Positions 4,975-5,360 of a stretch of 64,000 nt of DNA are shown piece by piece. The DNA is taken from NCBI RefSeq assembly GCF_030013205.1, contig NZ_CP122648.1. One strand, given 5' to 3'. Each line of letters starts with the position of its first letter. Position 1 is the first letter of the stretch. The DNA comes from Escherichia coli (GTDB taxonomy: Bacteria; Pseudomonadota; Gammaproteobacteria; Enterobacterales; Enterobacteriaceae). A model generated the notes under the pieces. It worked only from the letters and a program-made list of their open reading frames with translations. It was not told the DNA's origin and made no database searches. Both the position numbers and the translations under genes were made by a program.

Positions 4975-5168
4975 GTACGGGCGTCCAGCCAGATGAATAA
5001 AACGCGCGCAAATATGCGTCATTTTTTGACGTGCATCAAGTTTTTTCACCAGTTTGAGAAAAAATCATCAAACAGCAACTTGCCCTTATCCATCTTCAGA
5101 ATGAGTATTATTGCGGATTTTCTTAACCCGTACTATACACATAGGGGCAATGATAAAAGGTGGCAAAA

Positions 5169-5264
5169 ATGAATGTTTCCAGTAGAACTGTAGTACTGAT
5201 AAATGTCTTTGCTGCTGTTGGTTTGTTTACTCTTATCTCTATGAGATTTGGCTGGTTTATTTGA
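5169..5264 (+). CDS. yncL: Small membrane protein (31 aa)
   Basis: ATG at 5169, TGA at 5262; translation MNVSSRTVVLINVFAAVGLFTLISMRFGWFI; below the ORF-track length cutoff; RBS-like aaaaggtgg upstream. Confidence 0.65.
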   Translation: MNVSSRTVVLINVFAAVGLFTLISMRFGWFI

Positions 5265-5286
5265 TGTAGTAATTTTGCACGCAGCA

Positions 5287-5321
5287 CGTACTGTCAGAGA
5301 AATCAGTGCTCTGACAGTACG
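5287..5321. terminator. Perfect 13-bp inverted repeat between yncL and patD (possible bidirectional terminator)
   Basis: cgtactgtcagag-(9 nt)-ctctgacagtacg; flanking U-tracts are weak. Confidence 0.4.
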
Positions 5322-5360
5322 CAAGATCATCTCATACTCTTACGATCTGCAATATTATCC

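Follow-up and report, generated by a model that had tools for sequence, protein, structure and literature searches.

The perfect palindrome between ortT and patD on the Escherichia coli chromosome is probably the protective 3' stem-loop of a Rho-terminated mRNA, that of the small gene yncL. We reach this view from a stretch of 64,000 nucleotides of E. coli DNA (hereafter the 64-kb window), in which the ortT-patD interval would hold the complete yncL transcription unit. A promoter of the sigma-S type would drive a short message, monocistronic and about 180 nt long, that encodes the 31-aa YncL, and the palindrome would work as RNA, its 13-bp stem-loop forming the stable 3' end of this message. 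Neither the yncL gene nor this kind of 3' end is new, and public data already contained the end itself. What our analysis adds is the link between the palindrome and the 3' end, the covariation of the stem, and a lineage-specific swap to an intrinsic terminator.

The small open reading frame is yncL

A previous reading of this DNA, made from the sequence only, had noticed a 31-aa open reading frame with a plausible ribosome-binding site in the interval, and both are present: the frame runs from an ATG at 5169 to a TGA at 5262-5264, encodes MNVSSRTVVLINVFAAVGLFTLISMRFGWFI, and is preceded 5 nt upstream by AAGGTGG. That reading was mistaken in calling the frame unannotated, as RefSeq carries it as yncL (b4598 in MG1655) with the product name 'stress response membrane protein YncL', about 5,400 E. 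coli genomes have the gene under this name, and it has also been studied experimentally. Its description as a 'yncL-like' single-TM peptide was right about the membrane peptide and too modest about its identity, since the frame is yncL itself. Thus, the small frame is an annotated, known gene encoding a single-TM membrane peptide.

The direct comparison with the protein family gives the same identity. Against the NCBIfam equivalog NF000537 the product scores 72.5 bits (cut-off 35; E = 1.8e-20) over profile positions 1-30 of 30; our Pfam profile search with YncL returned no match, and the precomputed annotations do give PF28073:YncL. The product has the features expected of the family, namely a length of about 30-31 aa, one hydrophobic helix, and the LIN and C-terminal RFGW motifs. 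In the alignment of relatives the invariant residues are L10-I11-N12 and R26-F27-G28-W29; this alignment, which included the artefact cluster P0006 described below, also supplied the peptide pattern for our genome scan. Orthologues of YncL were found in 7 genera. Codon 14 (window 5208-5210) encodes Val here and Phe in K-12. Elsewhere this position is Val or Leu (other Escherichia, Intestinirhabdus and the Klebsiella clade) or Ile (Citrobacter), and because the orthologues carry one of these three residues, the Phe14 of K-12 is the unusual allele.

The surrounding DNA is widely shared (Table 1). Several porcine ETEC/O139 chromosomes carry the 311-bp interval between ortT and patD at 100% identity, and at 95% identity or more it is matched in 5,415 of 5,426 complete E. 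coli genomes. MG1655 positions were obtained as 1522363 minus the window position, on the opposite strand. Between window positions 5040 and 5370, MG1655 differs at 2 of 331 aligned bases, the sole differences being the one behind F14V in YncL and one base of the 3' UTR. In our searches of E. coli genomes, six matches to the yncL region lay on plasmid-typed records, and at least one genome carried two copies.

Table 1. Features of the yncL locus, in window coordinates
Feature	Position	Strand	Basis and remarks
ortT (orphan toxin OrtT)	4801..4974	-	RefSeq annotation carried over from a 100%-identical record; divergent from yncL
Predicted yncL promoter	5111..5139	+	Read from the sequence; -35 TTGCGG at 5111-5116, 17-nt spacer, C-TATACA at 5133-5139
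Shine-Dalgarno AAGGTGG	5157..5163	+	Sequence; 5 nt before the ATG
yncL CDS, 31 aa plus stop	5169..5264	+	RefSeq, MG1655 b4598, NCBIfam NF000537; small single-TM inner-membrane stress protein
yncL terminal stem-loop	5287..5321	+	13-bp perfect stem, 9-nt loop, without a U-tract
C-rich, G-poor tract, candidate rut	5322..5371	+	Putative, from base counts directly after the hairpin
yncL transcript mature 3' end	5324 (MG1655 1517039, - strand)	+	Term-seq, Adams et al. 2021; 3 nt past the stem, ...GUACGCAA-3'
patD (gamma-aminobutyraldehyde dehydrogenase)	5361..6785	-	Convergent with yncL; stop codon 39 nt from the hairpin
Rho stop zone for yncL read-through, antisense to the patD 3' end	5372..5610	+	Supplementary file 2, PMC7815308

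The start of the transcription unit can be placed by prediction. The putative -10 element is sigma-S-like, TATACA with an upstream C, and the motif cgtactatac upstream of yncL is kept from Escherichia to Raoultella in the related loci that hold this DNA, except in a Pluralibacter MAG. In addition, genomic SELEX with the RpoS holoenzyme gave a peak within the yncL/ydcX (that is, yncL/ortT) spacer (PMC5493296). A sigma-S-type promoter would be consistent with these observations. The (a)aggtgg element of the ribosome-binding site is also kept in most orthologous yncL loci. The ortT-yncL spacer holds, in addition, a 5-bp hairpin (ACGCG...TGCGT, window 5002-5029) flanked on both strands by T-runs. 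A weak 'orphan' 3' end of 848 reads (LB, OD 0.4) was reported at MG1655 1517357(+), which is window 5006(-) (Adams et al., PMC7815308); this end is inside the 5-bp hairpin, not past it, and within the leader of ortT, whose start follows 32 nt later.

According to previous work, YncL is a small protein of the inner membrane that is induced by heat shock, in minimal medium and in stationary phase (Hemm 2008/2010, as cited in PMC12542507). When it is produced, the membrane depolarises and the nucleoid condenses, and the protein is cleaved by RseP in vivo. The yncL mRNA is a target of RprA (RIL-seq and TRIC-seq) and of KilS (RIL-seq). In Salmonella, the yncL orthologue is sigma-S-dependent (PMC5437024), and its transcript was first catalogued as STnc1110, a discrete 195-nt sigma-S-dependent sRNA, whose coding nature was recognised later.

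A perfect stem without a U-tract

The two arms of the palindrome, CGTACTGTCAGAG at 5287-5299 and CTCTGACAGTACG at 5309-5321, are 100% complementary, with 13/13 pairs of which 7 are G-C. The perfect 13-bp inverted repeat of the sequence-only reading is therefore real, and no other perfect inverted repeat in the 64-kb window has arms of 13 bp or more and a loop of 3-12 nt. None of this kind appeared in 30 first-order Markov simulations, and this absence, together with its uniqueness in the window, argues that the repeat is not a product of chance. As RNA it folds with -21.6 kcal/mol on the plus strand and -22.5 on the minus strand (z = -4.4 against shuffles), and the hairpin is present in both the MFE and the centroid folds of the predicted 179-nt transcript.

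It had also been noted that the repeat lacks a clear U-tract and so does not look like a simple terminator, which our analysis bears out. The tail of the stem, caagatca, contains 1 T in 8 nt, and no A-tract lies upstream; for these two reasons, a consensus terminator scan did not call the palindrome. A search of Rfam gave two sub-threshold chance matches only, and the hairpin therefore corresponds to no curated RNA family there.

Within E. coli, a 43-mer around the hairpin was found in 5,411 of 5,426 genomes, with a median of one place per genome. It is identical in 4,284 records and 93.0% identical in 1,089; strain M6, the one whose sequence was taken from the latter group, has three differences, all in the loop (GTG to ACT). 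A single difference occurs in 37 records (in strain TB06051, the one sequenced, it lies just outside the stem), and identity falls below 90% in 2 records only (in strain E29, again the one sequenced, the 3' arm is changed). Thus, the stem is near-invariant within the species and the loop has two alleles. Besides both arms, the half-site has 2 matches at 2 mismatches in the window, where shuffles expect 0.8.

The transcript 3' end lies at the palindrome, with Rho-dependent termination downstream

Term-seq had been suggested as a check on the palindrome, and published data show a very strong transcript 3' end precisely there, 3 nt past the stem, so that the lack of ends that would have spoken against the earlier reading is not seen. 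At MG1655 1517039(-), Adams et al. (2021, eLife, PMC7815308, Supplementary file 1) counted 75,265 reads in LB at OD 0.4, 536,300 in LB at OD 2.0 and 433,399 in M63 glucose. The signal is thus 6-7-fold higher in stationary phase or minimal medium than in LB at OD 0.4, a profile that matches the known induction of yncL. Their pipeline labels this end 'antisense to patD', and the 61-nt sequence that they print for it is the hairpin (PMC7815308). The supplements of TERMITe do not mention the yncL hairpin site.

The same study documents Rho dependence downstream of the hairpin. On the yncL strand the Rho score peaks with a value of 16.6 (p = 5e-21) at MG1655 1516753(-), or window 5610, a position that is coarse, as the score uses 800-nt windows (PMC7815308). 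Upstream and downstream reads were 220 and 9 without bicyclomycin and 106 and 72 with it (PMC7815308), so that downstream coverage rises from 4% to 68% of upstream coverage when Rho is inhibited by the drug. Moreover, ExcludonFinder places patD-yncL among the convergent pairs with overlapping transcription. Directly past the stem, the RNA contains C11/G3 in the first 40 nt (C/G = 3.7) and C8/G3 in nt 11-50, which makes it a candidate rut; the RNA of the yncL frame is G-rich and for this reason unsuited to that role. A C-rich, G-poor tract past the hairpin also occurs in other Escherichia and in Citrobacter, where the sequence is partly conserved.

We propose the following sequence of events, its order borrowed from a class of transcripts considered at the end of this text. 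RNA polymerase would most likely pass the hairpin, because there is no U-tract for release. Rho would then load on the RNA that directly follows, rich in C and poor in G, and end transcription at most a few hundred nucleotides farther on, in the region antisense to the 3' end of patD. PNPase and RNase II would probably trim the RNA 3'-to-5' until blocked by the hairpin, leaving an end 3 nt past the stem, so that the hairpin would both fix the mRNA 3' end and guard the mRNA from decay. In this scenario, Rho would also restrict antisense transcription into patD.

A different account of the same data is that the hairpin is a non-canonical, U-less intrinsic terminator that releases most polymerases, with Rho acting only as a back-up on read-through. 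The stem is indeed strong and GC-balanced, the 3' end directly past it is precise and very abundant, and a true intrinsic terminator occupies the orthologous site in Klebsiella and Raoultella. We nevertheless regard this account as unlikely. The flanks of the stem have neither the T-run nor the A-tract described above, and the end lies nearer to the stem than usual: ends made by intrinsic terminators fall within the U-tract, about 7-9 nt past the stem. In addition, the downstream coverage reached with bicyclomycin is incompatible with efficient Rho-independent release, and the listing of patD-yncL as a convergent pair with overlapping transcription also speaks against it. A milder form, in which the stem causes a pause or a weak intrinsic release and Rho deals only with the polymerases that escape, is also of low probability. 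The preferred reading remains a protective stem-loop upstream of Rho-dependent termination.

Two possible partners of the hairpin were considered and set aside. RNase III normally needs roughly 20 bp, and the 13-bp stem is below that length. As for ProQ, a report on its isolated FinO domain describes specific recognition of RNAs with Rho-independent terminators, and the yncL hairpin has no such terminator.

The 3'-end structure is conserved with yncL across genera

When one genome per species was scanned with a peptide pattern, 25 yncL loci were obtained, a set that does not include the Salmonella locus. By tblastn, ortT is the upstream divergent neighbour in 23 of the 23 related loci that hold upstream DNA. 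The U-less hairpins of Escherichia and Citrobacter (-20 to -27 kcal/mol) lie 22-29 nt past the yncL stop; Pluralibacter has an unrelated U-less hairpin (-14.9 kcal/mol) farther from the stop.

The stem covaries. Across 8 Escherichia sequences, all closely related, both sides are changed in 4 of 14 pairs and one side alone in none, and 96.4% of cells are paired. The swaps are C-G to U-A, G-C to A-U or C-G, and U-A to A-U. None of 500 shuffles reached the observed covariation, and pairing falls to 22-54% when the register is slid. The loop is 9 or 11 nt long across Escherichia and variable in sequence. The comparison also took in Citrobacter, whose stem core has one more swap, U-A to G-C; as MAFFT set its stem one column off, the formal pair count covers Escherichia only, and Citrobacter was judged by its own fold.

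These data bear on the suggestion of the sequence-only reading that the palindrome may be a protein-binding site, which on DNA would mean an operator bound by a dimeric transcription factor or another DNA-binding protein. A perfect 13-bp dyad without a U-tract that is near-invariant within E. coli would suit such a site. The dyad stands between two convergent stop codons and not at a promoter, its arms covary across a spacer that changes from 9 to 11 nt among Escherichia, which suits an RNA helix but would rotate the half-sites of a dimer site relative to each other, and the dominant RNA 3' end already explains the structure. Nor does it recur as a regulator motif might, which had been another suggested check: it is single-copy in the E. 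coli genomes counted above, and its half-site is at chance level, with no excess of matches across the 64-kb window. We consider an operator at this place highly improbable, and return to the palindrome as an RNA element.

The hairpin also stays with yncL when the other neighbour does not. In Escherichia sp. MOD1-EC7003 (L004 2596-5093) it is kept with no patD within 2.5 kb downstream of yncL, and a convergent 653-aa ORF of the U32 family lies about 500 bp past it, which suggests that the ydcSTUV-patD block was deleted or rearranged in this lineage. Similarly, in Citrobacter the hairpin adjoins yncL while patD is 0.4-2.3 kb off. As it is kept beside yncL where patD is absent nearby or displaced, the hairpin belongs to yncL.

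It is tempting to speculate that the hairpin nevertheless serves both directions, capping also the patD (ydcSTUV-patD) mRNA, and that yncL read-through acts on patD as an antisense regulator of the excludon type. The perfect symmetry of the dyad would give the patD mRNA an identical stem; the patD-strand stem folds equally well, the RNA downstream of it on that strand also has C over G (C/G 2-3), and the pair is in the ExcludonFinder list. We find this quite doubtful, given that the hairpin is retained in the MOD1 and Citrobacter arrangements just described, that Rho normally keeps the antisense transcript within bounds, and that no patD-strand 3' end near 15170xx appears in the three Term-seq conditions (PMC7815308). 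In its strongest form, a symmetric hairpin that is a shared 3'-end cap and insulator, with Rho-limited yncL read-through as a conditional antisense brake on patD, the idea is a long shot; if true, this two-way cap and brake would link putrescine catabolism with a sigma-S stress peptide.

In Klebsiella, Raoultella and two genomes labelled 'Enterobacter' (L014, L016-L025), the orthologous position holds a canonical A6-GCAGCC...GGCTGC-T6 terminator. This A6/T6-flanked element of the bidirectional type sits about 20-55 nt after the yncL stop in the Klebsiella-clade loci. Since an intrinsic terminator replaces the hairpin in this clade, what is conserved is a 3'-end-forming structure and not its sequence. 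The mode of termination has turned over at one orthologous gene end, with a U-less hairpin on one side and an intrinsic terminator on the other.

Three sets of records call for comment as assemblies. An apparent divergent YncL homologue (MNVFSRIVVLINFFVVVGLFIFIFMRFGWFI; cluster P0006, L028 1380-1800 and L029) was rejected as an artefact of bisulfite-converted E. coli reads, because these Logan assemblies show T at every C of the yncL locus of E. coli; the cluster was excluded from the covariation and 3'-structure comparisons. Wherever the two were compared (the 60 nt preceding yncL, the ORF itself, and everything downstream as far as the contig runs), a 459-bp contig labelled 'Sporosarcina luteola' (L015) is identical to the yncL locus of Klebsiella pneumoniae. 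A contig of a 'Collinsella' MAG (L026) has a yncL of the E. coli type together with the hairpin and part of patD. These last two look like contamination or mis-binning in public assemblies.

Discussion

Beyond the correct annotation of the interval, the finding has little significance of its own, and the locus can be seen as a textbook example of the protective 3' stem-loop of a Rho-dependent transcript. It could serve as a clean, highly expressed test case of how U-less hairpins set the 3' ends and half-lives of mRNAs, as it combines a perfect 13-bp stem, a single strong 3' end, an effect of Rho and natural compensatory variants. Moreover, the contrast between a Rho-dependent cap in Escherichia and Citrobacter and an intrinsic terminator in the Klebsiella clade could model the turnover of termination modes.

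The closest relative is yncL (b4598) of K-12: the locus and its neighbours are the same, ortT divergent and patD convergent, and so is the 31-aa product except for F14V. The orthologous Salmonella transcript, STnc1110, is comparable in size with the one predicted here (195 nt against about 179 nt), a comparison made by size only.

Other extragenic elements resemble the hairpin in part. Like REP/BIME elements, it is an extragenic palindrome between convergent genes and could shield the upstream mRNA from 3' exonucleases. We rejected its assignment as a REP element, as the palindrome is single-copy and has no Rfam match; in addition, we take the REP consensus to be unrelated to its sequence. With canonical intrinsic terminators it shares the form of a stem-loop ending a short gene between convergent genes. 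It differs from them in that the Escherichia and Citrobacter hairpins have neither U-tract nor A-tract, the end lies 3 nt past the stem, and the RNA downstream is Rho-sensitive.

The nearest likeness is to the transcripts described by Dar & Sorek (2018, NAR, PMC6061677), in which Rho-dependent messages have precise steady-state 3' ends directly past stable stem-loops. The stem-loops of that class lack U/A tracts and have C over G downstream, and their ends are made by PNPase/RNase II trimming after diffuse termination farther downstream (PMC6061677). The yncL hairpin has the marks of this class: a precise end, no U/A-tract, C over G and bicyclomycin-sensitive read-through downstream. It stands apart in two respects, since trimming at yncL is proposed here from membership of the class, and its stem is an unusually perfect dyad, with every one of its 13 positions paired.
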